This document shows, in pieces, positions 37,591-58,247 of a stretch of 64,000 nucleotides of DNA. Each line of letters opens with the position of its first letter. The stretch's first letter is position 1. The stretch spans positions 14,876 through 78,875 of the forward strand of contig JAJYTE010000008.1 in NCBI GenBank assembly GCA_021793215.1, in the 5' to 3' direction. A model generated the notes under the pieces. The model was not told the origin of the DNA and did not search any database. It was given only the letters and a program-made list of their open reading frames with translations. The translations under genes were made by a program, and so were the position numbers. This stretch comes from Bacillota bacterium. Lineage in GTDB: Bacteria > Bacillota > Sulfobacillia > JAJZYS01 > JAJYTV01.

Positions 37591-38133
37591 ATGGTGGACA
37601 ACCTGAGGGAGTGGAGCGCTTTGGGTTTGCCTCTGCGCCGGTCGATGTTCGGCTACAGCCGACGAGCGACGAACGCGCTGTTGGCAGCGATGGAGGAAGA
37701 GCAGGCAGCAAACCGCGCCGAGTGGGCCGACCGCTCGGCTGGGCTGTCGCAGGAACTTGCGGACGTGCGGTCACTCGTGCACCAGAGGGAACGGGAAGTC
37801 CAAGGGGAGCAGGAGCGCCAGCGCGTGCTGATGGCGCTACTCGAGGAGATCTCCGCGCGTGGTGCGCAGGCGCTCTTGGCCGCGCAGGCGAGGATGGCGC
37901 AGAGCGAGGCGGAGATCCTCGAGGAGATCGCGCGGCGCGAGCTCGTGCTCGGACACCGCCGCAGCGTACTGCGCAGCCTGCGCGAGGACACCAGCCGCGC
38001 CGTACGGCGCGCGCTCGACACGATCGAACGGGAGCCCCCAGGGGCCGATGAGGCGGCCGCGACCCATGAAGCTGCACCGCCGGACGCGGGCTCCCGGGCT
38101 GTCGTCAACGTCCAGCAGGATACCGGGTCCTAG
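37591..38133 (+). CDS. DivIVA-domain protein (short paralog).
   Basis: N-terminal DivIVA signature F-G-Y-x-x-x-x-(V/T)-x-x-x-L (SMFGYSRRATNALLAAMEEE) followed by a coiled coil. Confidence 0.6.
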   Translation: MVDNLREWSALGLPLRRSMFGYSRRATNALLAAMEEEQAANRAEWADRSAGLSQELADVRSLVHQREREVQGEQERQRVLMALLEEISARGAQALLAAQARMAQSEAEILEEIARRELVLGHRRSVLRSLREDTSRAVRRALDTIEREPPGADEAAATHEAAPPDAGSRAVVNVQQDTGS

Positions 38134-38183: not shown

Positions 38184-39917
38184 ATGGGCCTGTTCGGCTA
38201 CCGGCGCGAGGATGTCCTTCGCCTCGCGGGTCAGATCGAGCAGGATGAGCTCGCTGCGCATGACCAGTTCGCGGAGCGCGTCACCGAGCAGGAGTCCGAG
38301 GTCGCCACCCTACGGGGTCGGCTCGCGGCGCTCGACGACGTGCTCCTTCGTCTGCGCGCGGACCGCGAGCATCTCGAGAGGCTGCTGGCGCTGGCACGAG
38401 ACAACTCCGCGACGCTCGAGGCCGGCACGCAGCGCGAGGTGGATCGGCTGAACGCTGAGCAGGGGGAGGAACTCGCGCGTCTGCGCGAATTCCTCCCACG
38501 ACTCGAGCAGGAGATCGCCGGCGTGGAGGGAGAGGTGACGGACCTCGCCCATCGCCTCGACCTCGTCGTGCGCGGAGATGTGTCTGAGACCTCGGACGCG
38601 GGTTCGTCGGGCGACTTCGCGGACGTGGCGGCTGCCCTACTCGAGCGTACCCCCAAGCATTTCCCCGTACGGCGCCTGCCGGGTGGCCGCACGGTTCTCG
38701 CGCTGCCAGAGGGCAGCGCGAGGCTTCAGGTCCGCGGCGGCGCAGTCGTCGCGTCCGTTGTCGGTCTCGTGGTGAGTCCGCCGCCCCACCGGGTGCTTGG
38801 GTTCGCGGTGGAGGGCGGCGACGCGACGGGGGTCGTGCCTGCGGCCGACGTCGCCGCGCTGCGCCAGGGGATCGTGCTCGTGCGCGACAAGTACCGCCTC
38901 GTGGCGGAGTCCGCTGTGCCCGACGAGGCGACCCGAGCGATCTTCCCAGTGACTCGCCCGTCCGCCACGGGTAGTCCTTTGGTCGAAGAGGTACCGCCTG
39001 CGAGGGACGACGCGGCGGACGCCGCGGACTTCGAAGCCGCAGGGCAGCGAAACGTGACCCAGAGGCCACCCGAGGAAACGGTCGCACCACAGCCTTCCGT
39101 CCCGGAGAAGCTGCCCGGCGCTTCGCCCGAAGTCGAGGCCGATGCGCCGGAGCCGCAGGACGCGGAGCCGGCCGCGCGCGAGATGGCGGCGGCGGTTGAA
39201 GACGCCGCCACTGCGCTTGAGGATGTGGAACCGACCGCCGCAGAGGCGGAGACGCCCGGATCGGAGGATGAGGCGCCCGCGACACGGCAGGACGCGCGCG
39301 CTGAGGTAGCGGATGTAGCGCTCGCGGCGCCTGCGCAAGGCGACCCGCTGCGCACGCCGACCAGCGCAGCGCGCAGCGAGGGGCCGCCGTCCGACGGAGA
39401 CCGCGTGAAGTCGTCGGGTGAACCACCGGCGGCGCCGCCCGCATGGCCGGAGCCAGCGCACGCCCTTGCGACATCAGAGGTGCCGCAACCCGACGCCCCG
39501 CCCGACGTGGAGATTGAGTGGCCTGAGGGAGTGCCGATGCCGGTCTGGCAACTGCCGGACGAGCGGCCCGCGGCGGCGTACGAGCCGCCGCACCGTGCGG
39601 CCGCGTCCCGCCCGCAGCCGACGCAAGTGCCGCCGCCCGAGCCGCCGCGGAGCCGCCCTCCCGAACCGCCCCGGCCGCGGGCGCCGGAACCCGCGCATCG
39701 TCCGGTCGCGGCTGGTTCGCCGACGCTCACGCCCGGTCTCAACATCCTCGCGTTCCTTCAGGGGAAGGTCGTCGGGCGCGACATCGTGGACGGCGCAGGC
39801 AATGTGCTGGCCGCGCGGGGGGCGTCCATCACGGCGGACCTCGTGGAACTCGTGGACGCCGCCGGCATGCTGCCGGAGATGATCGTCTACATGACCCTGC
39901 CCGAGGGCGGCGGTTGA
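38184..39917 (+). CDS. DivIVA-domain protein (long paralog) with a coiled coil, a ~200-aa Pro/Glu/Ala-rich low-complexity region and a small C-terminal PRC-barrel-like domain.
   Basis: The N-terminus LFGYRREDVLRLAGQIEQDE is a DivIVA motif. Low complexity spans ~aa 300-520 (PEPPRSRPPEPPRPRAPEP). The C-terminus is LQGKVVGRDIVDGAGNVLAARGASITADLVELV. ATG 38184 is preferred over the track GTG 38136. Confidence 0.6.
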   Translation: MGLFGYRREDVLRLAGQIEQDELAAHDQFAERVTEQESEVATLRGRLAALDDVLLRLRADREHLERLLALARDNSATLEAGTQREVDRLNAEQGEELARLREFLPRLEQEIAGVEGEVTDLAHRLDLVVRGDVSETSDAGSSGDFADVAAALLERTPKHFPVRRLPGGRTVLALPEGSARLQVRGGAVVASVVGLVVSPPPHRVLGFAVEGGDATGVVPAADVAALRQGIVLVRDKYRLVAESAVPDEATRAIFPVTRPSATGSPLVEEVPPARDDAADAADFEAAGQRNVTQRPPEETVAPQPSVPEKLPGASPEVEADAPEPQDAEPAAREMAAAVEDAATALEDVEPTAAEAETPGSEDEAPATRQDARAEVADVALAAPAQGDPLRTPTSAARSEGPPSDGDRVKSSGEPPAAPPAWPEPAHALATSEVPQPDAPPDVEIEWPEGVPMPVWQLPDERPAAAYEPPHRAAASRPQPTQVPPPEPPRSRPPEPPRPRAPEPAHRPVAAGSPTLTPGLNILAFLQGKVVGRDIVDGAGNVLAARGASITADLVELVDAAGMLPEMIVYMTLPEGGG

Positions 39918-41116
39918 TCGGCTCGCGCCGATCGGCGCGCCTATCGAGCCCGTTCGCCCGCCGCACGGCGGCCATCCTCGCCATCTCGCTCGTCTCGGGG
40001 CTGGCGGCGTACGGGTTCAACCTGCTCGTCGACGCCTTCTACGGGCCGCAGGCGCTGGCGCGCGTGCTCTCCGCGCTCGGTGCGGCCGCGACGCTCGGAT
40101 TGCCGGCCGCCGTCGTCAGCCTGCCGGTCGTGACATGGTCCGGGCAGGCGCACAACTGGAGGCGGCGCCTGCCCGCCGTGCAGGCGGGGTTCGTGGTCTT
40201 GGGTTTGATCAGCGGGGGCGGCATCCTACTGCTCGGGCGTACCTTCCCATCCGACTGGCTCCTGCCCGTCGGCCTGCTGGTCGCGCTGTCGACGTACCTG
40301 CCAGCCGTCAGCCAGGGAGCACTCGTCGGCCGGACTGCGTTCGTGGCAGCGGCGCTCGTCACGATGCTGCCGAACGTCCTGCGCTTTGCCGGCATTCTGG
40401 TCGTCGGTCCGCACCAGGGCGTCTCCACGATCTTCTGGGTGCAAGTGGCGAGCTACGGCGCGGCCGGAGTGATCGGCCTCGTCTGGCCGTACCTCACCTC
40501 GCATCCAGAAGCCGTGCGTGCGGTGAAGGCCACGCCGTGGGCTTCGGGGTGGGTGGCCCTCTCGGTGATGGCATGGCTTTCGGTGGACATCTTCGTCGCG
40601 ACGCTGCACCTCGGTGCGCAGCGGGCCGCCGGCTACGCGGTGATCGGGCTGCTTGGCAAGGCGCCCTTTTACCTTGCGCAGCCCGTGGTGCTGATGGTGA
40701 TCGGAGAGGAGGGGTGGGGTAGCACCCGCCGCGGTCCGGGCAGCCTTGCGATCGCGGCGATCACCGCCGTGAGCGTGCTGATCTCGCTGGCATTGGGACA
40801 CCTCGCCATGCACCTGATGGGCGTGGATCTGCCGGGCTGGCTCCTCGCGGCGTACGCCGTCGGGGCTTGCGCCCTGAGCTTGGGTTACCTGTGGGGAGGG
40901 TCGGCTGCGCAGCGCTCGCTCCACCACTGGTGGCCACAGCTCGCGGCCTGCGCGGTCTGGGTGGCGTGGGCGCTTCTACTGGGCGGCGGAACCACGTCGC
41001 TCGTGATCGGGTACCTCGCGGCGCAGCTCCTTGGGGCGGCAGGCGTCGTCTCGATCGGCTGGAGGCATTCCGCGGCGCAGTCCGGTAGGGAACCCGGCGG
41101 CGTGCTGGCGAACTGA
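39914..41116 (+). CDS. Polytopic membrane protein, possibly a Wzx/PST-family (MOP superfamily) oligosaccharide flippase.
   Basis: ~12 predicted transmembrane segments over 400 aa. Its start overlaps the stop of the long DivIVA paralog (TTGA). The family assignment is from topology and length only. Confidence 0.4.
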   Translation: MIGSRRSARLSSPFARRTAAILAISLVSGLAAYGFNLLVDAFYGPQALARVLSALGAAATLGLPAAVVSLPVVTWSGQAHNWRRRLPAVQAGFVVLGLISGGGILLLGRTFPSDWLLPVGLLVALSTYLPAVSQGALVGRTAFVAAALVTMLPNVLRFAGILVVGPHQGVSTIFWVQVASYGAAGVIGLVWPYLTSHPEAVRAVKATPWASGWVALSVMAWLSVDIFVATLHLGAQRAAGYAVIGLLGKAPFYLAQPVVLMVIGEEGWGSTRRGPGSLAIAAITAVSVLISLALGHLAMHLMGVDLPGWLLAAYAVGACALSLGYLWGGSAAQRSLHHWWPQLAACAVWVAWALLLGGGTTSLVIGYLAAQLLGAAGVVSIGWRHSAAQSGREPGGVLAN

Positions 41117-42749: not shown

Positions 42750-43547
42750 ATGCGCGCACCTCGCCTGCGCGGTCGCACGTTCGTCGTCTACTATGGCTAC
42801 GGCCCACTTCCGGAGATCGCCGATTACGACATCGCGATCCTGGAGCCGGCCGGTTGGCGCTCGCCGGACCTCGCGGCGCTCACGCGCCGGGGGGTGCGCC
42901 GCATTGCGTACGTCTCCGCGCTCGAGGCGACCCCGGAGACACTCCGCCGCATCGGCGTCGGTCAGCAGGACCTCCTGCGCAGCGGGGATGAACCGTGGCT
43001 GCGCGAGCAGTTCGGTACCTACGTCGTCGACCCGCGCTGCCGCCCGTGGCGCCAGCACCTGCAGCAGCAGTGCCAGCGGCTGATCGCGGAGGGATGGGAC
43101 GGGATCTTCCTCGACAGCCTCGGCGACGTCGAGGATCAGGCGGTGCAGGATCGCGCCGCGTGGCTGGTGCCTGCCGCGGCGGACCTCGTGCGGAGCGTGC
43201 GCAGCACGATCGGGCAGAGCCTTCTGCTGCAGAACAACGGGATCTTCTTCCTCCTGCCGCTCGTGGCCAAGCTCCTGGACGGGATCTGCTGGGAGGGCGA
43301 CTTCGAGCCCGAGACGACCGGTGGACCCTGGCTGCGCATGGTGCTCGAGCAGATCTCCGGCGTTGCGCGCGACGAGGGGGTTACTCCGCTTCTGCTGAGC
43401 GAAATCCCGGTAGGGGAGGGCGAAGCCTCGCGCATGGCCATGCTGCGGGATCTGAGTCAGCGCTACGGCATGCTCGCCTACTCGGCGCCGCTCGACTACG
43501 CGCGTGGCATCCGCAGCGTCGACGGCAGTGTCGTTCTGGGCAGGTAA
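42750..43547 (+). CDS. Putative GH114-like (endo-alpha-1,4-polygalactosaminidase/PelA-hydrolase-like) TIM-barrel protein.
   Basis: 265 aa. Pattern VVYYGYG...DYDIAILEP...RRIAYVSA...GWDGIFLDSLGD resembles Glyco_hydro_114. A strong GAAGGAG RBS precedes the ATG at 42750. Confidence 0.4.
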   Translation: MRAPRLRGRTFVVYYGYGPLPEIADYDIAILEPAGWRSPDLAALTRRGVRRIAYVSALEATPETLRRIGVGQQDLLRSGDEPWLREQFGTYVVDPRCRPWRQHLQQQCQRLIAEGWDGIFLDSLGDVEDQAVQDRAAWLVPAAADLVRSVRSTIGQSLLLQNNGIFFLLPLVAKLLDGICWEGDFEPETTGGPWLRMVLEQISGVARDEGVTPLLLSEIPVGEGEASRMAMLRDLSQRYGMLAYSAPLDYARGIRSVDGSVVLGR

Positions 43548-43557
43548 GGCAGGAAAA

Positions 43558-44397
43558 ATGTACATTCCTGACGTATTCCGTCGCGATGGACACGCGGCGG
43601 GAGGGAACGGCGTGGTCGTCTTCCTCATCCCAGAGTACAACGAGGAGCGGACCATCCTCGACATCCTAGGCAGGGCCGAGCCCTTCGCCGACCTCTTGGT
43701 CGTGGTGGACGACGGCTCGCACGACGACTCGCAGGCGCTCGTGCGCGGTTGGTGCGAATCGCACAGCAAGGTCGCACTGTTGAGCCACGCAAGGAACCGC
43801 GGCATGTCCGGTGCCTTGCGCACGGGCTTCCGCTACGTGCTCGACCTCGGAGCGCAAGGACTGATTGAACCGGACAGCATCGTCGTGACGCTCGACGCGG
43901 ACGGACAGCACCTGCCGGAGGAGGCGGGCCCCGCCGTCGCTGAACTCGACGCGCGCGGCGTCGACGTCCTGCTGGGACGTCGCGACCTCTCGGGCTACCC
44001 GCCCAGCAAGCAGATCGGCAACTGGCTCCTCTCGCTCTGGGCGAGCCTGCTGAGCGGATACCGTTTCCGCGACGTGGAGTGCGGATTCCGATTGATGCGC
44101 GTCGCGGTGATCGCCGACATCATGCCATTCTTCACCGGCCGGAATTACGGGTGCGCCCAGGAACTCGGCATCCTGCCCGTTCGGCGCGGCTGGAAGGTGG
44201 ACAACACCCTTCCGACCCGCGTCGCCTTCTACCGCAAGGGGGCGCGCATCCGCGATGGCCTGACCAACATGCGCATGGGCCTCGTCGCGTACCTGCGCGT
44301 CACCTTCGGCCGGATGCGGCAGGAGTCGCCAGCGGACGCCTTCGAAGTCACCTGCGATCCCGGCGTCCTGGACAAGTACGCGCTCGCGCTGCAGTGA
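43558..44397 (+). CDS. Family 2 glycosyltransferase (Dpm1/GtrB-like, GT-A fold).
   Basis: VVFLIPEYNEE...VVDDGSHDDS...TLDADGQH motifs (DxD and ED). Confidence 0.8.
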   Translation: MYIPDVFRRDGHAAGGNGVVVFLIPEYNEERTILDILGRAEPFADLLVVVDDGSHDDSQALVRGWCESHSKVALLSHARNRGMSGALRTGFRYVLDLGAQGLIEPDSIVVTLDADGQHLPEEAGPAVAELDARGVDVLLGRRDLSGYPPSKQIGNWLLSLWASLLSGYRFRDVECGFRLMRVAVIADIMPFFTGRNYGCAQELGILPVRRGWKVDNTLPTRVAFYRKGARIRDGLTNMRMGLVAYLRVTFGRMRQESPADAFEVTCDPGVLDKYALALQ

Positions 44398-45521
44398 GCC
44401 GGGCCCTCCTCACCGACGGCCTGCAGCGCAAGACGCTCGTTGCCACGCGGTCCCTTGGTCGAGCCGGCTGGCAGGTCGCCGTCGCGGACGACCGGCGCCT
44501 GAGTCTCGCCCGCTGGTCGCGGCACTGCAGCGAGGCACTGCGAAGCCCCACACCCGACGATACGGCGTACGGGGAATGGCTTTGCGCGGCTGCGCGCGGC
44601 TTCGACGTGGTGCTGCCGATGGACGACCTCTCGATGGCGGCTGCGGTCGCGCAGGGTGCGCGCCTGCCCGGTAGTCACCTCCTGCCGACGGCGGAGCAGT
44701 TCTCACTGGCGCGCGACAAGCTTCGCACCGCCGAACTCGCGGCGCGCAGCGGGGTTCCCCATCCGCGCAGCCTTGGCGTCGAGACGCAGGCCGACGTCGC
44801 GCGTGCGCGCGACGCGCTGGGCGGCGACACCGTCCTTCGGCCGCGCAAGGGTTCGGGCGGACGGGGCGTGCGCTTCCTGCCGGCGGGCGCACCGGCGCCG
44901 CGGGGGAACTTCGGGGGCCACCTCGTGCAGGAGTGCGTTCCCCTTGGGCGCAAGTTCGACGTGGGCCTGCTGTTCGGCGCAGAGGGCGACCTGCGCGCGC
45001 AGTTCTGCCAGGAGGAGCTGCGTTGGTTCCCAAGACGCCAGGACGCCAGCACGCTGCAGCGCAGCGTGGAGCGACCGGACCTCGTGGAACTCTCGGCCGA
45101 GCTCTTGCGGGAGGTGGGTTGGCGGGGTCTCGCGGAGGTGGAGTGGCAGATCGGCGCCGGGGGAACCCCGATGCTCCTCGAGGTGAACCCCCGCCCGTGG
45201 GCCTCGCTCGGCCTGGCTGTGGCGGCGGGAGTTGACTTCCCGCGCCTTTGGGCGGGCCTTGCGCTCGGCCAGGACGTGCGCGGTCCCGAGCACTATCGCA
45301 CCGACCTTCTCTGCCGCTGGTCGCTGCCGGCAGACGCGCTGCACTTCCTCCGCCACCCGCTGCGCGGGCTCGGGCAGGACGGCGGCCTGCGTCGGTCGGG
45401 CGAGCGGCTCGTCGACGACGTCATCGACCCAGGCGACCTCGGGCCGACGTTCGGCTTCGCGCTCGCGGTGCTCGGCCACGCGTTCGACCTTCGGACGTGG
45501 CGGCAGGTGATGAGGTGGTAG
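44394..45521 (+). CDS. ATP-grasp domain enzyme (carboxylate–amine/thiol ligase superfamily).
   Basis: Pre-ATP-grasp and ATP-grasp features (RPRKGSGGRGV...HLVQECVP...LAEVEWQI...MLLEVNPR). GTG start overlapping the GT2 stop by 4 nt. Confidence 0.65.
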   Translation: MSRALLTDGLQRKTLVATRSLGRAGWQVAVADDRRLSLARWSRHCSEALRSPTPDDTAYGEWLCAAARGFDVVLPMDDLSMAAAVAQGARLPGSHLLPTAEQFSLARDKLRTAELAARSGVPHPRSLGVETQADVARARDALGGDTVLRPRKGSGGRGVRFLPAGAPAPRGNFGGHLVQECVPLGRKFDVGLLFGAEGDLRAQFCQEELRWFPRRQDASTLQRSVERPDLVELSAELLREVGWRGLAEVEWQIGAGGTPMLLEVNPRPWASLGLAVAAGVDFPRLWAGLALGQDVRGPEHYRTDLLCRWSLPADALHFLRHPLRGLGQDGGLRRSGERLVDDVIDPGDLGPTFGFALAVLGHAFDLRTWRQVMRW

Positions 45522-46384
45522 ACACGCACGCGCTGACGATCGACGTGGAGCACTGGTACGACGCGACGCTCGCCGCGCGGCCCCCGAGGGTCGACCCGAG
45601 CCACGCGGAGCGCGAGCTCGATTCCATCCTCGCGCTCCTCGAGCGCCACGGCGCGCATGCGACCTTCTTCGTCCTCGGCAGCCTCGCCGAGGATCTTCCG
45701 CAGTGCGTTCGCCGGATCGCCGCGGCGGGACACGAGGTGGCCTGCCACGGTTTGACGCACGAGCTTTTGTGGCAGCTCGGGCCCGCGCGCCTGCGGGCCG
45801 AGGCGGGCAGGGCCAGGGCGCTGCTGCAGGACCTCAGTGGGCAGGAGGTCGCGGGGTTCCGCGCCCCGACCTGGTCGCTCGACCGCCGTACGCCCTGGGC
45901 CCCCGCGACCCTTCTCGCGCTCGGCTTCTCCTACGACGCGAGCGTGTTCCCGCTGCGCACCCCGCTCTACGGCGCGCCGGGCGCGCCCACCTCCCCGTAC
46001 CTGCTCGCCGGAGGAGGAGGGAGCATCCTCGAACTGCCGCCTGCGGTGCTGGAGATGGGACCGCTGCGGCTGCCCGTCGCCGGGGGGATCTACTGGCGCG
46101 TCCTCCCCGCGGGCATCGTCTCGCTGGCCCTGCGCGGGCAGTCCCCGCGCGTCCTCTACGCCCATCCCTGGGAGGCTGCGCCAGCCGGTTGGTCGCTACC
46201 TCGGTCCACGGGCTTGTCCGCGCGCTTCGCGATGCGCTTCGGGAGAGGTCACCTTGCCAAGGTCCTGGACCGATTGCTTGCAACCGTTCGCCTCGTGTCG
46301 ATCGCCGAAGCCTACGAAAATCTTGTCCGCGACGAACTTCGCACCTGGTCACTCGACGCGGCGGCGATCACTGATGGATCCTGA
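45515..46384 (+). CDS. Polysaccharide deacetylase (CE4 family with a DUF3473-like C-terminal segment).
   Basis: CE4 motifs HALTIDVEHWYD, ...HGLTHE..., ...FRAPTWS.... GTG start overlapping the ATP-grasp stop by 7 nt. Confidence 0.75.
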   Translation: MVDTHALTIDVEHWYDATLAARPPRVDPSHAERELDSILALLERHGAHATFFVLGSLAEDLPQCVRRIAAAGHEVACHGLTHELLWQLGPARLRAEAGRARALLQDLSGQEVAGFRAPTWSLDRRTPWAPATLLALGFSYDASVFPLRTPLYGAPGAPTSPYLLAGGGGSILELPPAVLEMGPLRLPVAGGIYWRVLPAGIVSLALRGQSPRVLYAHPWEAAPAGWSLPRSTGLSARFAMRFGRGHLAKVLDRLLATVRLVSIAEAYENLVRDELRTWSLDAAAITDGS

Positions 46385-48314
46385 GCACGAGGAGGTCCGG
46401 GCCGCGGAAGAAGACACTTGCACTCTGGGGATGGGCGGAGAGGAACGCCATCGCCCATGCGTAGGCGTGCGCGTCGGCGACGCGGCCGTCGGGGCCCAGG
46501 TTCTCTGCCGCCGCGAGCGAGTCCGGGACGGACTTCGCGAGGTCGGCGCGCGCAGGGCGAAGGCCGTCCGTCGTGATCCGCGGCACGTAGAGGAAGGTGT
46601 CCGGCGAGAGGATCTGAAGCGGCCAGTTCCGTGGCAGCATGCGCGGGTTTTTCGCGTCGGCCAGCGGGACCGTTCGGAGGAAGGAGCGAAGCTCCACGTG
46701 CCAGCCCTTGCCGAGCAGTTCGCTGTACTGCTCGGTGGGGGAGATCGCGGTCCACTGATAGGCTTCGTACGCGGCCTCGATGCGCCCTGTTACGACGCCG
46801 GAACCGGGCACCTCGTAGCGCGTCGTGGCCTGGACGGGCATCAGGCCGGACGCCAGGGCGCCAGCGCCCAGCAGGATCGCGAGCCCCTGCGCGGCGCGGC
46901 TCTCCTGCGGCTGGTTCGCGGCGAATGAGAAGAGCCACCCGACGAGGACCGGAACTGCGAGGAACCCGACGTACCCGCCGACGCCCAGGGTCACGCTGAG
47001 GGGAGGGGGGATCGGGAGGAGCGCCTCCGCGGCGAACGCGACCATGCAGATGCCGAAGCCGAGGAAGAGGGGCCCGTCGTCGTAGCGCCAGGCGCGCAGC
47101 GCCGTGAGCAGCATGAGGAGTCCGCTGCCGGCGAGCACGACGAGGCCGCCGGTGCCGGTGAGCCAACCCGGCACGGCGCTCGATGAGACGGCCGGCGAGG
47201 AGAGAAGCGTTGCGGCGGGCGCGTGGCCCGTGAGCAGCGCGGCGGCGAAGGGCGCGAACCCCACGGTCGCGCCGAGGAGCGCGAGTAGGGCAGCGCGTAC
47301 GCCCGCTCGCCGGCGACCGATCCACGGCAAGCCGAGGCCGACGGCGAGCAGGGCGGCGTACGGCCACGCGAGGGGCTCGAAGAGCACGGCGACGAATCCC
47401 GCGGTGCAGGCAAGCCACGCGTCCTGGGGGATGCCCCGCCGCAGGGAGCGCACGAGGAAGGCGCCTTGCGCCAGGAGGAAGACGAGCGCGGCGTGCGCGC
47501 TCAGGGGGTACCACGCGTCGAGTGAACCGCCTCCGAGCGCAGGCAGCGCCGTGAGCGCCACGAGCGTCAGCGCGACTGCTGCCGCCCAAGTGGATTCGGC
47601 GATCTCCGCTGCGAGCGCCGCTGCGGCGAGGGGCTGGAGCAGGGCGAGCAGTGGACCGAGGAAGCGCAGGACGTTCAGGGGATCGAAGAAGAAACTGGTG
47701 GACAGGAGGGCGGCGAGGATCGGGACGCCGAGCGGGTAGGCACCCGTGGTGTAGATGCCCATGTTGAGTGCGATCTGCTTCGCCGCGAGCAGTTGTTCGT
47801 AGCCGTCCGGCGTCGCGGGCACGACCTGCCCGAGCGCAGCGGGGAACTCGCGCCAGACCACGATGACCAGGACGACGAGCACCACGAGGTTCTCTGGTCG
47901 GCGAAGGCGCAATCCGGCTAGGCGCAGGGCCCTCGCCCAGCGCGCGAGCGCGTCGCGCGTGAGCGACAGGAAGGAGTGCTCGGTGTCCGGGTCCATCGCG
48001 TCGAGCGCCGAAGCCGTCCGCTCGTCGCGGGCCGCTTGGAGCTGCGGCTGCGAGAGGCGCCGGCGATGGAGGTAGCGGGCGGCCACGATCATCAGTGTGA
48101 GGGCGAGCCCGATCGTTGCGAGCTCGATGCTCGAGAGCAGCGCAAGGAGTAGGCCGAGCGCGAGCCAGATGGCCGCGCCAGCCGTCAGGAGCCGCCAGAG
48201 CGCCGTGAGAGGCGGACCCTGCGGCAGGCGGGGCAGGAGGATGTACGGCAGGAGCGCGAGCGCGGTGGCGAGTCCGATGGTGACCTGCAGCGCGGCACCG
48301 GCGGCACCGCTCAT
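46368..48314 (-). CDS. Large polytopic membrane protein (648 aa); paralog of the next gene; possible GT-C-like glycosyltransferase or polymerase.
   Basis: Hydrophobic throughout, with a ~150-aa C-terminal extracytoplasmic domain. Start MSGAAGAALQ at 48314 overlaps the upstream gene stop (ATGA). The 1559-aa track ORF to 51047 is an artefact of an open GC-rich frame. Confidence 0.5.
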   Translation of the reverse strand: MSGAAGAALQVTIGLATALALLPYILLPRLPQGPPLTALWRLLTAGAAIWLALGLLLALLSSIELATIGLALTLMIVAARYLHRRRLSQPQLQAARDERTASALDAMDPDTEHSFLSLTRDALARWARALRLAGLRLRRPENLVVLVVLVIVVWREFPAALGQVVPATPDGYEQLLAAKQIALNMGIYTTGAYPLGVPILAALLSTSFFFDPLNVLRFLGPLLALLQPLAAAALAAEIAESTWAAAVALTLVALTALPALGGGSLDAWYPLSAHAALVFLLAQGAFLVRSLRRGIPQDAWLACTAGFVAVLFEPLAWPYAALLAVGLGLPWIGRRRAGVRAALLALLGATVGFAPFAAALLTGHAPAATLLSSPAVSSSAVPGWLTGTGGLVVLAGSGLLMLLTALRAWRYDDGPLFLGFGICMVAFAAEALLPIPPPLSVTLGVGGYVGFLAVPVLVGWLFSFAANQPQESRAAQGLAILLGAGALASGLMPVQATTRYEVPGSGVVTGRIEAAYEAYQWTAISPTEQYSELLGKGWHVELRSFLRTVPLADAKNPRMLPRNWPLQILSPDTFLYVPRITTDGLRPARADLAKSVPDSLAAAENLGPDGRVADAHAYAWAMAFLSAHPQSASVFFRGPDLLVLRIHQ

Positions 48315-50293
48315 GGCGAGAGCGCGCCCAGGGACTGCAGTCCCTGGGGTTTGCTCAACTCGTACACCGTCACGTTCGGGCCGCGGAAGTAGACGGGGAG
48401 CGGACCATGCGTCCTCTCCCACGCGGCGATCCACGCGCCCAGGGCGCGCTGCGCCGCACTGCGCCGCGGCGCCACAACGCGGCGGTACTGCCGCGCGACG
48501 ACCAGTCGCCGGTCGACGAAAAGGAAGATGTGATCCTCGGAGATGGCGTAGGACGCGACGCCCCCCGCGTGGTAGACGGGCCACCGGCCGACCGTGCCGA
48601 CGTGCTGGAGAAAGGCGGAGGCGGTCATGAAGAAACCCTGGCCGTATGCGTAGTCGAAGCCGCTGTCGTCCGAGACCGCGAGCCAGGTGCCATGCGGCAG
48701 GCTCGTGCCGATCTTGACGTACGCCACGACGAAGTCGTCGGGAAGCCACCGGGACTGCGCATCCGCGCTGAGGGGCGTCGGCCGGAACTGCACCCAGGCC
48801 GCAGCGGCGATCGCGACGGCGCCGCCAAGCGCCAGCCAGCGCCCGACGCCGAAGTGCGCGAGCTCCAGGAGTTCCTGCACCGCGGAGAGACCGAGGCCGA
48901 GCGCGAGCGCTTCCGCCAGCGCGAGGAATTCTCCGGCGCGCGACGCAAGCACGAGGGAGTCGATGCCCAGGCGCGGCGCCTGCTGGATCGCGAGCGCCGA
49001 AAGCAGCACCAGAAGCCCTGCGATGGCCACCCCGAGATCGACGCGGTCGCTGCGGCGTACGAGTAGGCGCAGCCCGCGCACCAGCACGAGCGCGGCGGCG
49101 CCGGCGAGCGCGACGCGCGCCGTCAGGCTGATCGCCGGAGCGGCGGCGTGGCTTGCCGCCGCGGCGAAGGCCGCACCCGAACTGTTGAGCGGGATCCCGA
49201 GCGCCAGGGCCACGGCGATCGGCAGGAGGGCGATCAGGGCGGCGAGCGCGACCCAGCGCACGTACCAGGAGAGTGTCGCGAGGCGGACGCCGTTCGTCAG
49301 CCAGGCGCCGAGCGTCGCCGCGACGGCGGCTGCGGCGGCGTTGAGGAGGACGACGGGATGCGTCAGCGCGCACGCGAGCAGCAGGGCGAGCGCGGTGCCG
49401 CGGTGCCAGGTGCCCTTGCGTACCCAGGAGACGTAGACGAACCACAGGGTCGGCAGCACCAGCGCGTTGCCGAACTCCTGCGAATCGGTGCCGACCTGCC
49501 GGACGGCCGAGTACGGCAGGAAGTGCGGCAGCGCGCCGTAGACCAGGACGGCGACGATCGCCGGCGCGATGCGGCCACTGACGCGGTAGGTGGTGTAGCC
49601 GACCGACGCGACCATCATGATGCCGACGAGCGGGCCGAAGAACCGGATGGTCGCGATCGGGTTCGCCGCGGTGAGCCGGGCGAGGTCCGCGATCACGATG
49701 TGGAATCCCTCGGGGTAGATGCCGTTCGGGAAGAGCACCTGCGACTCGATCGCCTGTACCCAGTAGATGACGACGTCCGAGTCGGAGAAAGGGATGGCGG
49801 CGTGCGCGAGCGGGGAGGCGAGCCGCATCCACGCCGCGATGGCGAGCACGGCCAGAAGGGCAAGGGTGCCGACCACCCAGTAGAGGCTCCACCTGCGCGA
49901 CGAGCGCCCTGCGGGGCGCGGCCGCGGCCGCAGGCCGGCGAGCACGCGGGACGGCAGGCTGCCCAACTGGTCGAGCTCCGAGAGGAGGAGCGCCGCGAGG
50001 CGCGCACCGCGCCGAAGCTCGTACTCCCCGGGTGTCGCGCGCGGGCGCAGCAGGCGGACCGCGAACACCAGGAGCGCGAGCGTCAGCCAGCTGTAGATGT
50101 GCGCGGCGACGAGCGCGTACCCTGCGAGCATCAGGACGACCAGCATGCGCGCGCCGTAGCCGGCGACCGCGTCGAACGGCGCCACGCCGTCCTCGACGGC
50201 GAACGCGTAGCGCGGCCATAGGTAGAAGAGGACGATTCCGCCCACGAGGAGGCGCGCCAGCGTGGGGATCTCGATGGAGAGCGGGAACGGCAT
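48311..50293 (-). CDS. Large polytopic membrane protein (660 aa); paralog of the previous gene; possible GT-C-like enzyme.
   Basis: Shares architecture and a conserved loop with its neighbour (FPNGIYPEGFHIVIADL versus LNMGIYTTGAYPLGVPIL). Contains an acidic PFSDSD loop. Confidence 0.5.
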   Translation of the reverse strand: MPFPLSIEIPTLARLLVGGIVLFYLWPRYAFAVEDGVAPFDAVAGYGARMLVVLMLAGYALVAAHIYSWLTLALLVFAVRLLRPRATPGEYELRRGARLAALLLSELDQLGSLPSRVLAGLRPRPRPAGRSSRRWSLYWVVGTLALLAVLAIAAWMRLASPLAHAAIPFSDSDVVIYWVQAIESQVLFPNGIYPEGFHIVIADLARLTAANPIATIRFFGPLVGIMMVASVGYTTYRVSGRIAPAIVAVLVYGALPHFLPYSAVRQVGTDSQEFGNALVLPTLWFVYVSWVRKGTWHRGTALALLLACALTHPVVLLNAAAAAVAATLGAWLTNGVRLATLSWYVRWVALAALIALLPIAVALALGIPLNSSGAAFAAAASHAAAPAISLTARVALAGAAALVLVRGLRLLVRRSDRVDLGVAIAGLLVLLSALAIQQAPRLGIDSLVLASRAGEFLALAEALALGLGLSAVQELLELAHFGVGRWLALGGAVAIAAAAWVQFRPTPLSADAQSRWLPDDFVVAYVKIGTSLPHGTWLAVSDDSGFDYAYGQGFFMTASAFLQHVGTVGRWPVYHAGGVASYAISEDHIFLFVDRRLVVARQYRRVVAPRRSAAQRALGAWIAAWERTHGPLPVYFRGPNVTVYELSKPQGLQSLGALSP

Positions 50294-50305: not shown

Positions 50306-51943
50306 CTAGACCATGCGGTAGAGCATGAAGTCGATGCGCGGCAGGAGACGAAGAATCTCTACCGTCGTCAGGACGACGAGGCAGGCGACGCCTGCGATCA
50401 GGCCGACGACCGCGAACTGGTAGGCGTTGAAGACGCGGGTCGCGATGATTCCGACCGTGACGTCGACCGCGACCGCCAGCAAGAGGGAGCGCAGGGCGGG
50501 CTGCGGGTGCGCGAGGCCGAACATCACGAGGATGTTGAACAGCGACAGGGCAAGGAAGACGTAGGCGAAACTTGACCAGGAGAAGACGAAGGGCTCGACG
50601 CCGGTCACCGGAACCGCAGCGCGCAGCAGCGGTATCTGGTGCGCGAGGGACACCCCGAAGCGGATCAGGATCAGCCCGACGACCGCGACGAGCAGGAATC
50701 CGCCGACCGCCCGCAGGTACACGGAGCGCATCGCCCGCGCGAGGTCCTCGACGCGGTGCTCGAGGGCACGGTGCTGCGCGACCATCAGCCAGCGGATCAG
50801 GTAACCAACGAACGCCTCGGTCGCCGCCAGGGGAAGGATCAGCGAGGCGAGCGACCAGTCCATCCCGAGTTCGTACTGGCCGCGGAACCAGATGCTGTAC
50901 GGCAGGAAGGTGGTAGCGGTCGTCCAGGCGACGAGGCGGTCCGCGAAGATGAAGATGAAGTAGAGGATGCCGTAGAAGAAGTAGGTGCTGGTCGCGTAGG
51001 CAAGCTGCGAGGTGCGCGTCTTCACGATGCGCCCGGCGTGCTGCCACTGGCGGCTCTGGCGCCGGAAGATCACGAGCCAGGCCAGTACCGCGCCCACGGT
51101 GGCGGCGGCCATGGCGATGACCTGCGCCAGGATGACGCTATGGGCCTCGCGCCAGATGACGTACGCGATGAGGACCGCGCCGAGCGTGAGGAGCGTCAGC
51201 ATGTACTCGCGCCGCAGCACGTAGAGGCTCGCGTACGCCAGCCAGAGCACCGAGAGCATGACCATGTAGACGACCATGAACGTGACCAGCGAAAAGGGGA
51301 AGATCGGGAAGACGCTGTCGCCGATGAGGATCGCGACGGCGACGAGGATGGCCATAGTTGCGCCCCAGCGCATGACCTGGAAAAGCATGCGCTCGACGAG
51401 GGCGGCCTCCTGCAGGCCGACCAGCAGGTAGTAGGTCGTGGCCATCGCTTGGGAGAAGCCGCCCGTGACGACGAAGCTGAGGAAGGTCGCGATGCCGAGC
51501 ACCGTGGCCTGCGCCACGGAGAAGTACTGGAACGACGAGATGCTGATGTGGAGGATGACCATCGACCCGATGGACACCGCCATGGGCATCGCGAACGTGA
51601 ACCCGTGGAGGAAGTCCGCCGCGACGAGGCGGAACATCTTGAACCAGGAGACCTCCGCGCGCGGCGGCAGGGGGACGTTGCGCACCGAGACGTTGTACTC
51701 CTCGTAGAGCTCCTCCGCGAGGTCGAACACGCTCGGGCTGCCGAACACCTCGTCGACGCGCTGGTCGCTCCAGCCGAGCGACTCGATCGTCGCTGCGACG
51801 TCAAGGCTGTCCTGCAGGTCGCCGTTCGCCTCGACCACGGAGCGCAGCAACTTGGCCCGTGCATCGCGGCTGCGCGCGGACGCCGACCCCTGACCGACGG
51901 CGCTGCCCAATCGCTCACACCCCAGTCGTTGGCGCGTAGACAT
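50306..51943 (-). CDS. Polytopic membrane protein (~546 aa) with a ~100-aa cytoplasmic N-terminus; possible exopolysaccharide export/assembly protein.
   Basis: About 12 hydrophobic segments. Divergent from the PelF-like GT4 across a 185-bp intergenic region. The start is ATG 51943 or TTG 51949. The PelG-like functional guess comes from context only. Confidence 0.4.
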   Translation of the reverse strand: MSTRQRLGCERLGSAVGQGSASARSRDARAKLLRSVVEANGDLQDSLDVAATIESLGWSDQRVDEVFGSPSVFDLAEELYEEYNVSVRNVPLPPRAEVSWFKMFRLVAADFLHGFTFAMPMAVSIGSMVILHISISSFQYFSVAQATVLGIATFLSFVVTGGFSQAMATTYYLLVGLQEAALVERMLFQVMRWGATMAILVAVAILIGDSVFPIFPFSLVTFMVVYMVMLSVLWLAYASLYVLRREYMLTLLTLGAVLIAYVIWREAHSVILAQVIAMAAATVGAVLAWLVIFRRQSRQWQHAGRIVKTRTSQLAYATSTYFFYGILYFIFIFADRLVAWTTATTFLPYSIWFRGQYELGMDWSLASLILPLAATEAFVGYLIRWLMVAQHRALEHRVEDLARAMRSVYLRAVGGFLLVAVVGLILIRFGVSLAHQIPLLRAAVPVTGVEPFVFSWSSFAYVFLALSLFNILVMFGLAHPQPALRSLLLAVAVDVTVGIIATRVFNAYQFAVVGLIAGVACLVVLTTVEILRLLPRIDFMLYRMV

Positions 51944-52128: not shown

Positions 52129-53883
52129 GTGGCCCGCAAACTTCGCGTGCTGTTGGCGACCGAGGGCACCTATCCGTATCACCTGGGCGGCGTGAGCACG
52201 TGGTGCGATGCGCTGGTGCACCGACTCGACGACATCGACTTCACGGTCTTCGCCGTGGCGATGAACCCGTTCGTGCGTAGCCGATTCACCTTCCCGCCAA
52301 GCGTCCGCGGGATCGTCACAGTGCCTCTCTGGGGGACGCAGGATCCTTCCGAGCACAAGGAGCAGATGCCTTTCTCGGAGATCTTCCTGCAGAAGCAGCG
52401 CACGACGGAGGAGCAGATCGAGCGCGGGTTCCTGCCCGAGCTGATGCAGATCCTGACGCAGATGCGCTGCGACGGCGCCCGGCCCGAGGCGGTCGGGAAC
52501 GCGCTCGCCGGTTTGCACCGCCATTTCCAGACCTTCGACTACCGGCAGACGTTCAAGTCGCCGCTCGTCTGGCAGGCCTTCCGGGACTTCCTGCAGACGG
52601 CCGCCGACGAGGGCCTTTGGCCGGAGCCGAGCGTCTTTGAGGCCGTCCAGGCACTCGGCTGGGTCTACCACTTCTTCACGGTGCTGAACACGCCGATCCC
52701 AGAGGTGGACGTTGTGCACTCGTCGGCGGCCGCGTTCTGCGGCATGGCAGGGGTCGTGGCCAAGGTGGAGTACGGCACCCCACTTCTGCTCACCGAGCAC
52801 GGCGTCTACCTGCGCGAGCAGTACCTCTCGGTGGGTCGCAGCAACATGAGCCGATTCTCCAAACGGTTCCTCATCGCGATAGTGCGGACGATCGTGCGCA
52901 CGAACCTCTACTACGCGGACGTCGTGGCTCCGGTGTGCAGCTTCAACGCGCGCTGGGAGCGACTGCTCGGCGTAAGGGGCGAACGCATCTCCGTCGTCTA
53001 CAACGGGGTCTCGTCCGATGTCTTCGCCCCCAGAACGCAGCGGAGCGAGGGTCCCCTTCGACTGCTCGCCGTGGCGCGCAGCGACCCCAACAAGGACATC
53101 GAGACGCTGCTGCGCGCGATGGCGATCATCCATCGCCATCTCCCCGACGTGCGCCTCGACATCCGGGGATCTGTCTCGGTGCCCGACTACCATACCCGCA
53201 TGCTGGCACTTTGCACGGAGCTCGGGATCGACGATGTCGTCGTGTTCGGCGGCCACACCGAAGACCCAGCGGCGCTCTACCGTGAGGCAGATGTGCTCGT
53301 CCAGTCGAGTGTGTCCGAGGGGTTCCCCTACGCGGTGATCGAGGGTATGATGAGCGGCCTGCCGGTCGTCGCGACGGACGTGGGCGGGACGTCGGAGGCG
53401 GTCGCGGACACGGGCATCACGGTGCCCGCCCAGGATCCGGCTCGCCTCGCGGCGGCCCTGATCATCGTGCTGCAGGACGAGGACCTGCGCGCGCGGCTCG
53501 GTGAGGCGGCGCGGGAGCGGGCCCTGAACCTCTTCACCATCCGTCGCTCTGCCAGCGAGTACATGGACCTCTACACGGCGCTGGCGGGCGGCGAGGTGCC
53601 GCAGGTCGCGCTGCCGGCCGGCGCGCGCCGAGGCGTCTCTTTGAAGCCGGCGAGCACCGCCCAACTGGTGCATCTTCAGAAGGCCCTCGCGCTTCGGCGG
53701 CTCGGCATGCCGGTCGCCGCGCTCGACCAGCTCTCTCGCGCGCTCGCGGCAGCCCCGAACGCCGGCGCGGCATCCGCGATCCTTGCGCAGGTCGCGGAGA
53801 TCGAGCGAGAACTCGGCCATGGGGCCGACGCCCTCGAGCACCTCGCGAGCGCGTGGCTGATCTCGCAGGTCCAAAGCGCCTGA
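52129..53883 (+). CDS. pelF: GT4 glycosyltransferase of the PelF type (DUF3492 N-domain plus GT1_4 C-domain).
   Basis: N-terminus RVLLATEGTYPYHLGGVSTWCDALV matches the PelF hallmark (EGTYPY..GGVS.W). C-terminal GT4 EX7E region (VQSSVSEGFPYAVIEGMMSGLPVVATDVGG). Confidence 0.7.
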   Translation: MARKLRVLLATEGTYPYHLGGVSTWCDALVHRLDDIDFTVFAVAMNPFVRSRFTFPPSVRGIVTVPLWGTQDPSEHKEQMPFSEIFLQKQRTTEEQIERGFLPELMQILTQMRCDGARPEAVGNALAGLHRHFQTFDYRQTFKSPLVWQAFRDFLQTAADEGLWPEPSVFEAVQALGWVYHFFTVLNTPIPEVDVVHSSAAAFCGMAGVVAKVEYGTPLLLTEHGVYLREQYLSVGRSNMSRFSKRFLIAIVRTIVRTNLYYADVVAPVCSFNARWERLLGVRGERISVVYNGVSSDVFAPRTQRSEGPLRLLAVARSDPNKDIETLLRAMAIIHRHLPDVRLDIRGSVSVPDYHTRMLALCTELGIDDVVVFGGHTEDPAALYREADVLVQSSVSEGFPYAVIEGMMSGLPVVATDVGGTSEAVADTGITVPAQDPARLAAALIIVLQDEDLRARLGEAARERALNLFTIRRSASEYMDLYTALAGGEVPQVALPAGARRGVSLKPASTAQLVHLQKALALRRLGMPVAALDQLSRALAAAPNAGAASAILAQVAEIERELGHGADALEHLASAWLISQVQSA

Positions 53884-58041: not shown

Positions 58042-58247
58042 CTGTGCACAACCTTCGAGGGGCGTAATCCCGTATTGCCCTGATCATAGCGCGCGAGGGA
58101 AGGGGGCGGTAGCCGCATCGGCGCGATGTGGCGCAAGAGCGCTGCGGATCGGCCCGTTGCGACGGTTCCTTTGGCCCGAAACGGCCCTGGCGCGGCACTG
58201 AGCGCACATGCACAATGTGGACAGATGGGAAGCGAGGGGGCAGGCGG

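Follow-up and report, generated by a model that had tools for sequence, protein, structure and literature searches.

An ATP-grasp ligase encoded between a GT2 and a CE4 deacetylase gene in Bacillota: a possible amide-forming step on a lipid-linked amino sugar at a Pel-like locus

Why is an ATP-grasp ligase encoded between a glycosyltransferase and a deacetylase, in reading frames that overlap on both sides, at a polysaccharide locus of a Bacillota bacterium? The locus lies in a 64,000-nucleotide stretch of DNA (GenBank assembly GCA_021793215.1, contig JAJYTE010000008.1, positions 14,876 to 78,875 of the forward strand; GC content, ~70%), which we call the window, and all positions given here count from its first letter. 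A preliminary description of this DNA had proposed that the ligase modifies the sugar polymer, either by re-acylating amino groups freed by the deacetylase or by amidating a uronic acid. The reading that we favor, with a probability of roughly 45%, is that the ligase would be the amide-forming step of a cytoplasmic three-enzyme pathway for remodelling the N-acyl group on a lipid-linked amino sugar, with delivery to the outside by GT-C proteins. The three genes are as follows.

43612 to 44397, + strand: small soluble GT2, 261 amino acids (aa) (PF00535; alternative ATG start at 43558)
44394 to 45521, + strand: ATP-grasp ligase, 375 aa, of the PF15632/COG3919 type (Pfam, AlphaFold model, Foldseek)
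45515 to 46384, + strand: CE4 + DUF3473 deacetylase, 289 aa (PF01522 and PF11959)

The open reading frame (ORF) of the ligase begins with GTG, within an overlap of 4 nucleotides (nt) that also holds the TGA stop of the preceding GT2 gene (cAGTGAgc), and ends with a TAG stop. Its 3' end overlaps by 7 nt the CE4 gene, which starts with GTG at 45515 and is immediately preceded by a Shine-Dalgarno-like element, AGGTGA. The GC contents at the three codon positions of the ligase ORF (0.79/0.54/0.86) are usual for true genes in the window, and a sliding profile of third-position GC and reading frame marks the GT2, ATP-grasp, and CE4 ORFs all as coding, with a frame change at ~45500. On a public metagenome contig, the identical 375-aa protein was called with unchanged boundaries. 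Both overlaps are kept in four orthologous loci (L002-L005), and the 7-nt overlap is also found in L006, L007, and L034, a recurrence far beyond chance.

Two Pfam families matched the ligase above their cutoffs, PF15632 ATPgrasp_Ter (2.4e-12, 47.2 bits versus 29.1) and PF02655 ATP-grasp_3 (2.1e-6, 28.4 bits versus 23.2). The AlphaFold2 (AF2) model had a predicted local distance difference test score (pLDDT) of 92 and a predicted TM-score (pTM) of 0.91, and it gave 681 Foldseek matches in the PDB at E<=1e-3, the 50 best of which were all ATP-grasp enzymes. The best of them was 2pn1 (E 8e-20, TM-score 0.79), an uncharacterised structural-genomics protein labelled "carbamoyl-phosphate-synthase-like"; PurK, biotin carboxylase, and PylC came next. 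A sequence search of the PDB returned weak matches only, with 2pn1 at 1e-4. In an alignment of 35 full-length orthologues (38-67% identity), K109 of a "DK" motif and E263, N265, and R267 of an E-x-N-x-R motif were invariant (35/35), and D108 and the glycine-rich loop G155/R157/G158 were at least 90% conserved; the conserved residues line up with the motifs of biotin carboxylase. Judged by its predicted structure, the ligase is a genuine three-domain ATP-grasp, and the conserved residues indicate that it is probably catalytically competent. The gene arrangement given in the preliminary description, an ATP-grasp gene between a GT2 and a CE4 gene with overlaps of 4 and 7 nt, is thus borne out by the Pfam scores, the modelled fold, and the recurrence of the overlaps in orthologous loci.

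Assignment to a subfamily, which the preliminary description had left to profile searches and structure prediction, succeeded for the fold and failed for the name. No named ATP-grasp subfamily of NCBIfam, PurK included, reached its curated cutoff with the ligase: the best, PRK12767 ("carbamoyl-phosphate-synthase [CPS]-like"), scored 41 bits versus 390, RimK scored 28 versus 143, and Ddl scored 15 versus 243. Weak similarities to RimK, LysX, and the N-terminal regions of cyanophycin synthetase were likewise all far under cutoff, no MptN-specific model was among the NCBIfam matches, and the TupA-type ATP-grasp (Cj1438C type) was absent from the Pfam matches at E<=0.01. The labels RimK, Ddl, CPS, and LysX were dropped, as every NCBIfam ATP-grasp score fell far below cutoff. 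Since no curated subfamily came near its cutoff and no TupA match was found, we place the ligase in the broad, uncharacterised PF15632/COG3919 group. This group is large, as a profile search of 1.84 billion representatives gave 4,413 matches to the ligase family at E<1e-30, the best 150 being essentially all at E<1e-82 and mostly full-length. The source annotations gave no informative name for the clusters of the window proteins, and for some ligase homologues they offered no more than a COG label of a generic kind or the automated label "D-aspartate ligase". The D-aspartate ligase of Enterococcus faecium, Aslfm (COG3919), is an ATP-grasp enzyme acting on a cytoplasmic cell-wall precursor, in which it attaches an amino acid to the amine of a peptide lysine. 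It shares the broad COG with the window ligase, and a few distant matches are JGI-labelled "D-aspartate ligase", but the relationship is very remote (E ~1e-8 over ~57% of the length).

In order to follow the ligase gene across genomes, we scanned one genome per species, which gave 53 related loci, and then ran tblastn with all window proteins. The nearest related loci came from high-GC Bacillota/Clostridia metagenome-assembled genomes (MAGs). About 20 of the 53 loci carry a co-conserved set made up of a PelF-like GT4, a 545-aa protein with 12 transmembrane segments, one or two copies of a 650-660-aa protein with 12 or 13 such segments, an HD-GYP protein, a GH114-like protein, and the GT2, ATP-grasp, and CE4 proteins. 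The gene order GT2-ATP-grasp-CE4 was found in L002-L007, L018, L019, L022, L055, and L064; the triad is therefore kept as a unit in other genomes, a point that the preliminary description had left to be checked. ATP-grasp and CE4 genes are adjacent in L008-L010, L016, L020, L027, and L034, which brings the genomes in which the two genes adjoin or overlap to about 20, and the Paenibacillus loci contain all parts in a different order. Beside these stands L024, on a contig assigned to Candidatus Udaeobacter: its gene order is that of the Paenibacillus loci L023 (Paenibacillus vietnamensis N4) and L028 (Paenibacillus sp. Soil522) and its identities to the window proteins are similar, which suggests a recent transfer or a mis-binned contig.

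The link between ligase and deacetylase extends to single polypeptides. P0224 (686 aa) is a natural fusion of ATP-grasp, CE4, and DUF3473 in the order of the window, with 31% identity to the window ligase in its ATP-grasp part (3e-36) and 35% identity to the window deacetylase in its CE4/DUF3473 part (2e-39), and P0198 fuses ATP-grasp, CE4, and GT4. At an unrelated polysaccharide locus (Wzx/GT2/GT4/PMT_2), a 33%-identical ATP-grasp subfamily is again encoded directly 3' of CE4. In haloarchaea, a GT2 gene overlaps a CE4/DUF3473 gene, which overlaps a FemAB-like gene, with an ATP-grasp gene 3 kb downstream, and a Woesearchaeota locus has the order CE4-ATP-grasp-ATP-grasp-FemAB-like. More generally, in archaeal and PEP-CTERM-type loci, FemAB-like genes stand at or near the position corresponding to that of the ligase, beside related CE4 genes that follow a GT2 or a phosphoglycosyl transferase gene. 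No FemAB-like gene was found in the window locus or in any Bacillota locus. Since CE4 is accompanied by FemAB-like proteins elsewhere and by an ATP-grasp without FemAB-like proteins in Bacillota, we propose that the ATP-grasp fills the role of the aminoacyltransferase and re-acylates the amine exposed by CE4. Re-acylation of CE4-freed amines is the best-supported chemistry for the ligase.

The archaeal loci (L040:3862-12684, L060, and L031:9153-13282) are of interest in their own right. Those of haloarchaea encode a DUF2206 membrane protein, a FemAB-like protein, GT2, CE4/DUF3473, another FemAB-like protein, DHHA1, an FkbM methyltransferase, the ATP-grasp, and a MATE/Wzx flippase, and that of Woesearchaeota encodes CE4, two ATP-grasps, and a FemAB-like protein. 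From these arrangements, it looks as if a short peptide is assembled on a sugar amine of the archaeal envelope.

We then considered where the deacetylase acts. The CE4 protein matched PF01522 with 73 bits versus a cutoff of 23.1, together with PF11959 (DUF3473). ArnD belongs to the same polysaccharide-deacetylase (PF01522/CE4-like) family. The best curated match was TIGR03006, the XrtA/PEP-CTERM deacetylase (1.9e-59, 201 bits, below the 276.2 cutoff), and homologues are annotated as PEP-CTERM-associated deacetylases, and the protein is a close relative of the PEP-CTERM/XrtA-type enzymes; no EpsI, exosortase, or FemAB-like gene was found at the window locus. The catalytic residues D10, H73, H78, R116, and H217 (Asp base, His-His metal site, Arg, and His acid) were invariant in 16 sequences. 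The protein and all its orthologues have the catalytic DVE(H/D)W motif at their very start, a signal peptide was predicted for none of the CE4 orthologues, and neither signal peptide nor transmembrane segment was predicted for the GT2, ATP-grasp, or CE4 proteins of the window. All three enzymes are thus predicted to be cytoplasmic, and ATP-grasp chemistry depends on cytoplasmic ATP. In comparison, Gram-positive Pel systems have PelA_DA as their deacetylase, an extracellular protein that belongs to a different CE family and has 610 aa and a single membrane pass (PMC13254593). The ATP requirement, the lack of a signal peptide or transmembrane segment, and the dissimilarity to PelA_DA together exclude the exported polymer and point to a cytoplasmic precursor as the substrate. 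CE4 as an equivalent of PelA_DA was rejected on architecture and localization (289 aa and cytoplasmic versus 610 aa and membrane-anchored).

No paper on DUF3473 was found in the literature searched. In 7/7 sampled contexts of CE4/DUF3473 homologues, there was an adjoining enzyme of a type able to load polyprenyl phosphate, either PF02397 Bac_transf, encoded immediately 5' of CE4/DUF3473 in L059, L062, and L063, or a GT2 not further classified (L060, L061, L063, and L064). In L065, MurJ, GT2, and DUF2304 genes lie beside CE4/DUF3473; DUF2304 is the family of GacJ and Rv3632, partners of the N-acetylhexosamine (HexNAc)-P-polyprenol synthases GacI and PpgS (10.1101/180810). L065 is a single metagenome contig (1-2515 and 6001-9609) with two CE4/DUF3473 genes. 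The first is followed by an HAD phosphatase and an ATP-grasp gene, giving the arrangement CE4-HAD-ATP-grasp, and the second is followed by genes for a flippase of the MurJ type, a GT2 of 242 aa, and a DUF2304 protein, which looks like a complete unit of HexNAc-P-polyprenol synthase, deacetylase, and flippase. This suggests CE4/DUF3473 as a candidate type for the not-yet-identified deacetylase step of PpgS-like galactosamine pathways.

The GT2 of the window bears the signatures of a lipid-carrier transferase. It matched PF00535 (4.1e-17), and its top NCBIfam matches were PpgS (50.6 bits versus 370), the dolichyl-phosphate hexose transferase, and ArnC. A family profile built from 12 orthologous sequences and run against the PDB matched ArnC (2e-17), DPMS (1.9e-13), and GtrB (1e-11), the next match being the N-terminal part only of chondroitin synthase (5e-8). 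The motif D95-A-D-G-Q-H100, invariant in the 12 orthologues, compares with DADLQN in ArnC, DADLQD in GtrB, and DADLQH in DPMS. The invariant R124 and K133 line up, by HMMER sequence alignment alone, with R128 and R137 of ArnC, which are ligands of undecaprenyl phosphate (PMC12690121). We therefore predict that the GT2 is a polyprenyl-phosphate HexNAc transferase of the ArnC/GtrB/DPMS/PpgS/GacI type. Its identification as a polymer synthase was rejected, given no transmembrane segments, no synthase-type matches, and the signatures of polyprenyl-phosphate glycosyltransferases. No DUF2304 gene was seen at the window locus in Pfam matches or in the annotation of the neighbors.

The other genes of the locus are the following.

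39914 to 41116, + strand: membrane protein with 11 predicted transmembrane segments, without a Pfam/NCBIfam family match, found only in L002-L005
41138 to 42724, + strand: HD-GYP domain protein, 528 aa (PF13487 at 8.9e-32; HD and HHERWDGHGYP motifs)
42750 to 43547, + strand: GH114-like (PelA-hydrolase-like) TIM-barrel protein, 265 aa (PF03537 at 8.9e-5, under cutoff; co-conserved)
46368 to 48314, - strand: paralogue of the GT-C-like protein, 648 aa, with 13 predicted transmembrane segments (22% identity to the 660-aa protein)
48311 to 50293, - strand: predicted GT-C, 660 aa, with 12 transmembrane segments and a C-terminal soluble domain (AF2 and Foldseek)
50306 to 51943, - strand: candidate exporter/flippase, distantly PelG-like (MOP type), 545 aa, with 12 transmembrane segments (PF16933 matches of orthologues)
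52129 to 53883, + strand: PelF-type GT4 (DUF3492, GT4, and C-terminal TPR; NCBIfam PelF equivalog and Pfam)

The 648-, 660-, 545-, and 400-aa membrane proteins had no Pfam or NCBIfam match at E up to 10. For the 660-aa protein, an AF2 model (pLDDT 87) gave 19 top Foldseek matches in the PDB that were all GT-C proteins (STT3, DPY19, AglB, ArnT, AftA, and PglB; probability 1.0, E 5e-6 to 5e-3), and its invariant D171 lies in a predicted loop as a candidate extracytoplasmic acidic residue. GT-C glycosyltransferases use lipid-linked donors, and on this modelled fold the 660-aa protein is predicted to be one of them. The 648-aa protein, 22% identical to it in alignment, is taken as a GT-C because it is the paralogue of the modelled protein, and both are co-conserved with the triad across loci. 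The 3' ends of the 648-aa gene (- strand) and of the CE4 gene (+ strand) overlap by 17 nt (46368-46384), leaving no terminator space between the convergent operons.

Reading these family signatures together, we propose that the GT2 would work like ArnC, GacI, and PpgS and charge undecaprenyl phosphate with HexNAc taken from a UDP-sugar, and that CE4/DUF3473, following the logic of ArnD, would strip off the N-acetyl group on the inner side of the membrane. The ligase would activate a carboxylate, most likely that of an amino acid, as an acyl-phosphate and would join the acyl group to the freed C2 amine, giving an N-acyl- or aminoacyl-hexosamine (HexN)-P-undecaprenol. The lipid-linked sugar would then be flipped, and the two proteins of predicted GT-C fold would pass the sugar to an extracytoplasmic acceptor, probably the polymer of the PelF/PelG-like synthase of the locus. 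The earlier proposal of a sugar-polymer modification survives in part, as re-acylation of an amine after CE4 is favored by the fusions, the CE4 adjacency, and the FemAB-like parallels, whereas a finished polymer as the substrate is disfavored by the need for ATP, the absence of signal peptides, and the predicted lipid-carrier type of the GT2.

Several observations weigh against this pathway. The fold neighbors of the ligase include carboxylases (PurK and biotin carboxylase) as well as amide ligases, so the fold alone cannot settle the chemistry. Six close relatives of the ligase (P0120, P0231, P0222, P0234, P0203, and P0214) are fused to phosphatases of four folds, namely PgpA lipid phosphatase, HAD (PF12710), PHP, and the low-molecular-weight phosphotyrosine phosphatase LMWPc, which hints that some members of the family use phosphorylated substrates, as in the case of Cj1438C/Cj1435, and which our model leaves unexplained. 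The ligase homologue of L012 sits among metabolic genes, according to Pfam, and near those of L011, L013, and L021 tblastn gave no match to window locus proteins. The GT2 reached no NCBIfam equivalog cutoff, and none of the transmembrane helices of ArnC/GtrB was predicted for it. The Foldseek TM-scores of the 660-aa protein were modest, at 0.35-0.46, and no flippase for the lipid-linked sugar was identified; the 11-segment protein (39914 to 41116) is a possible, speculative candidate. Finally, the gene order GT2, ligase, CE4 does not fix the order of the reactions, and CE4 and the ligase could act on a UDP-sugar before its transfer to the lipid.

This last point leads to the alternative that survives best, which we nevertheless consider unlikely: the same chemistry on a nucleotide sugar, with CE4 deacetylating UDP-HexNAc and the ATP-grasp N-acylating UDP-HexN before the GT2 loads undecaprenyl phosphate or another acceptor. 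The Vim/Wbp pathway is drawn on UDP-sugars (PMC7468200), all three enzymes are predicted to be soluble, and the gene order is silent on the sequence of steps. However, CE4/DUF3473 genes are repeatedly coupled translationally to Bac_transf or GT2 genes in other loci, which fits a lipid-linked substrate as for ArnD. Moreover, ArnC takes only the N-formylated (blocked) sugar, and unblocking follows the transfer to the lipid (PMC12690121).

Quite unlikely is a substrate other than a sugar, such that the ligase would make a dipeptide or small amide or would modify a protein (RimK-like or L-amino-acid-ligase-like) and would be co-located because the sugar genes use its product, or for regulation. 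The four homologues without locus proteins detected nearby (L011, L012, L013, and L021; 34-40% identical) and the weak NCBIfam similarity to RimK, LysX, and the N-terminal regions of cyanophycin synthetase would fit such a role, but the named-family scores are all far under cutoff, and neither the natural fusions with CE4/DUF3473 and with CE4 and GT4 nor the conserved two-sided translational coupling agrees with it.

Amidation of the carboxylate of a uronic acid with an amine, the other option of the preliminary description, is less likely still. It has a precedent in the TupA-like Cj1438C of the Campylobacter jejuni capsule, an ATP-grasp that amidates glucuronic acid (GlcA) with phospho-amines before an HAD phosphatase acts (PMC11800379), and some members of the ligase family are fused to or lie beside HAD phosphatases. 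But a UDP-sugar dehydrogenase is absent from the window locus and from L055, the ligase has no match to the TupA-type family, and the deacetylase fusions and strict adjacency would be left unexplained.

We hold it very unlikely that the ligase performs a non-amide reaction, either bicarbonate activation and N-carboxylation of the freed sugar amine, in the manner of PurK and biotin carboxylase, or phosphorylation of its substrate. The leading fold matches include PurK and biotin carboxylases (E ~1e-18), which have the E-x-N-x-R motif in common with the ligase; however, the amide ligase PylC is an equally good fold match, and amide-forming FemAB-like enzymes stand at or near the corresponding position in related loci. 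Sugar N-carbamates are also unstable, and we know of no precedent for glycan N-carbamates. The literal polymer model, in which the polymer after export is first deacetylated by CE4 and then re-acylated by the ATP-grasp, is barely credible. In its favor, polymers are common substrates of CE4 enzymes, and Pel loses part of its N-acetyl groups; but ATP is absent outside the cell, signal peptides and transmembrane segments are lacking from both enzymes in every orthologue, and the true PelA_DA architecture differs.

What polymer might receive the sugar? The locus has the character of a divergent Pel system. The GT4 scored 132 bits versus a cutoff of 100 for the NCBIfam PelF equivalog, with DUF3492 at 3.4e-39, and is likely the polymerising glycosyltransferase. 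PF16933 (PelG) matched 5/13 orthologues of the 545-aa protein, the best at 1.4e-5, and left the window protein itself unmatched; a PDB profile search with the family gave no match, and the protein is co-conserved with the locus. A GalE-like epimerase is encoded nearby. The HD-GYP protein, conserved in all complete loci, has intact HD and GYP motifs behind an N-terminal domain of ~340 aa without a known family; it is the probable cyclic di-GMP (c-di-GMP) module of the locus and may be the sensor/switch of a Pel-like system, no GGDEF/GAF/PelD-type receptor protein having been detected. The GH114-like protein has no signal peptide or N-terminal transmembrane segment, even with the longest upstream extension of its ORF, which would be unusual for a hydrolase that trims a polymer. 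No PelD, PelE, or extracellular PelA/PelA_DA was detected, and the only deacetylase is the 289-aa CE4 protein.

Two further genes lie upstream, at 37591-38133 (180 aa) and 38184-39917 (577 aa). Their products have similar Phe-Gly-Tyr starts (FGYSRR and FGYRRED), which we take to be reminiscent of DivIVA; no DivIVA profile was matched, and coiled-coil-type Pfam matches were weak (E >= 0.15). In other loci, a gene between those for PelF and the PelG-like protein encodes a conserved counterpart of the C-terminal ~55 residues of the 577-aa protein, which may itself be a PelD/PelE-like scaffold. On the other side, the region 56887-60593 encodes a histone-deacetylase-family protein beside a GNAT and CoA-ligase-domain protein (together a Pat/AcuC-like pair for protein acetylation); CoA-transferase and SDR genes come next, and the region is unrelated to the polysaccharide locus.

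The window locus shares with Pel systems (pelABCDEFG; in Gram-positive bacteria, pelDEA_DAFG) a PelF equivalog, a GH114-like protein, a linked c-di-GMP domain protein, and a nearby GalE-like epimerase, and it may share a distant PelG-like protein. It differs in having no detected PelD, PelE, or extracellular PelA_DA, in having HD-GYP instead of a GGDEF/GAF receptor, and in adding GT2, ATP-grasp, CE4, and two GT-C genes, none of them listed for published Pel loci. In canonical Pel, which is partially de-N-acetylated, the charge comes from extracellular de-N-acetylation. A wider proposal, which we put forward tentatively and regard as doubtful, is that the locus has a new route for decorating a biofilm or envelope polysaccharide, in which an N-aminoacyl or N-acyl hexosamine would be built on undecaprenyl phosphate and grafted by GT-C onto a Pel-type polymer, replacing extracellular de-N-acetylation; as its corollary, the large, uncharacterised family of CE4/DUF3473 would be a general cytoplasmic deacetylase of lipid-linked HexNAc, with ATP-grasp or FemAB-like partners as interchangeable means of placing amino acids on sugar amines. 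In the Pel literature searched, no ATP-grasp, GT2, or GT-C accessory genes were reported in Pel loci, and a search on ATP-grasp with Pel/PelF, lipid carrier, GT-C, or deacetylase found no description of the module. The statement in the preliminary description that no such step is known for Pel, PNAG, or GAG pathways is consistent with this literature, amidation by a capsular ATP-grasp being known in C. jejuni (Cj1438C).

At the level of chemistry, the sequence of reactions that we propose has a counterpart in mycothiol and bacillithiol synthesis (MshA/B/C and BshA/B/C), where attachment of GlcNAc, deacetylation, and ATP-dependent ligation of Cys follow an identical logic. These pathways differ in their enzymes (GT4, an LmbE-type deacetylase, and a Cys-tRNA-synthetase-like or BshC ligase) and yield a soluble thiol, not an envelope glycan. 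Among envelope pathways, the Arn system of Gram-negative bacteria (ArnC, ArnD, ArnE/F, and ArnT) is similar in that a GT2 loads an N-blocked amino sugar on undecaprenyl phosphate, ArnD unblocks it on the cytoplasmic side, and a GT-C transfers it outside (PMC12690121). ArnC proteins are the best solved relatives of the window GT2, and ArnT is among the fold matches of the 660-aa protein. Unlike Arn, the window locus has no ArnA/ArnB, so its sugar would differ from that of Arn and is probably a HexNAc. Further differences are an acceptor other than lipid A, an added re-acylation by the ATP-grasp, and the DUF3473 domain borne by the CE4. GacI/GacJ/GacK/GacL of Streptococcus and PpgS/Rv3632/Rv3779 of Mycobacterium likewise use a GT2-made HexNAc-P-polyprenol and GT-C transfer onto a cell-wall polysaccharide (10.1101/180810, PMC9671496), and PpgS is the top NCBIfam match of the window GT2. 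In contrast to these systems, the window locus lacks a DUF2304 partner; the GlcNAc of the group A carbohydrate stays acetylated, neither system has a ligase, and the mycobacterial deacetylase is not yet identified.

Aminoacylation of a deacetylated sugar is found in the Vim/Wbp pathway of Porphyromonas and Tannerella (VimE, a CE4, and VimA), which leads to 2-N-seryl and 2-N-glycyl sugars (PMC7468200), and PEP-CTERM loci combine a FemAB-like protein with the TIGR03006 deacetylase, the best family match of the window CE4. In both cases the acyl-transfer enzyme is GNAT- or FemAB-like, whereas it is an ATP-grasp in the window, and such an enzyme would therefore use a free carboxylate and ATP rather than an activated donor. 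The window locus also differs from PEP-CTERM loci in having no exosortase/EpsI and in a CE4 score under the TIGR03006 cutoff. The C-terminal ATP-grasp of C. jejuni Cj1438, there fused to a GT2, is similar in being encoded at a polysaccharide locus and in making a sugar amide (PMC11800379), but it is of the TupA-like family, activates the carboxylate of GlcA, and involves no deacetylase.

If the proposed pathway is correct, it would give a function to DUF3473-type CE4 deacetylases and to an orphan ATP-grasp family of considerable size (4,413 cluster representatives at E<1e-30), and it would add an ATP-dependent acylation step to the Arn/Gac-type pathways that decorate envelopes with lipid-linked monosaccharides. 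The enzymes would then be useful as targets and as tools for glyco-engineering. The divergent Pel-type locus, without the canonical extracellular deacetylase, occurs across Bacillota, including cultivable Paenibacillus, and in a few MAGs assigned to other phyla. N-aminoacyl amino sugars alter surface charge and antigenicity, and they can be attachment points, like the linking sugar of Porphyromonas.

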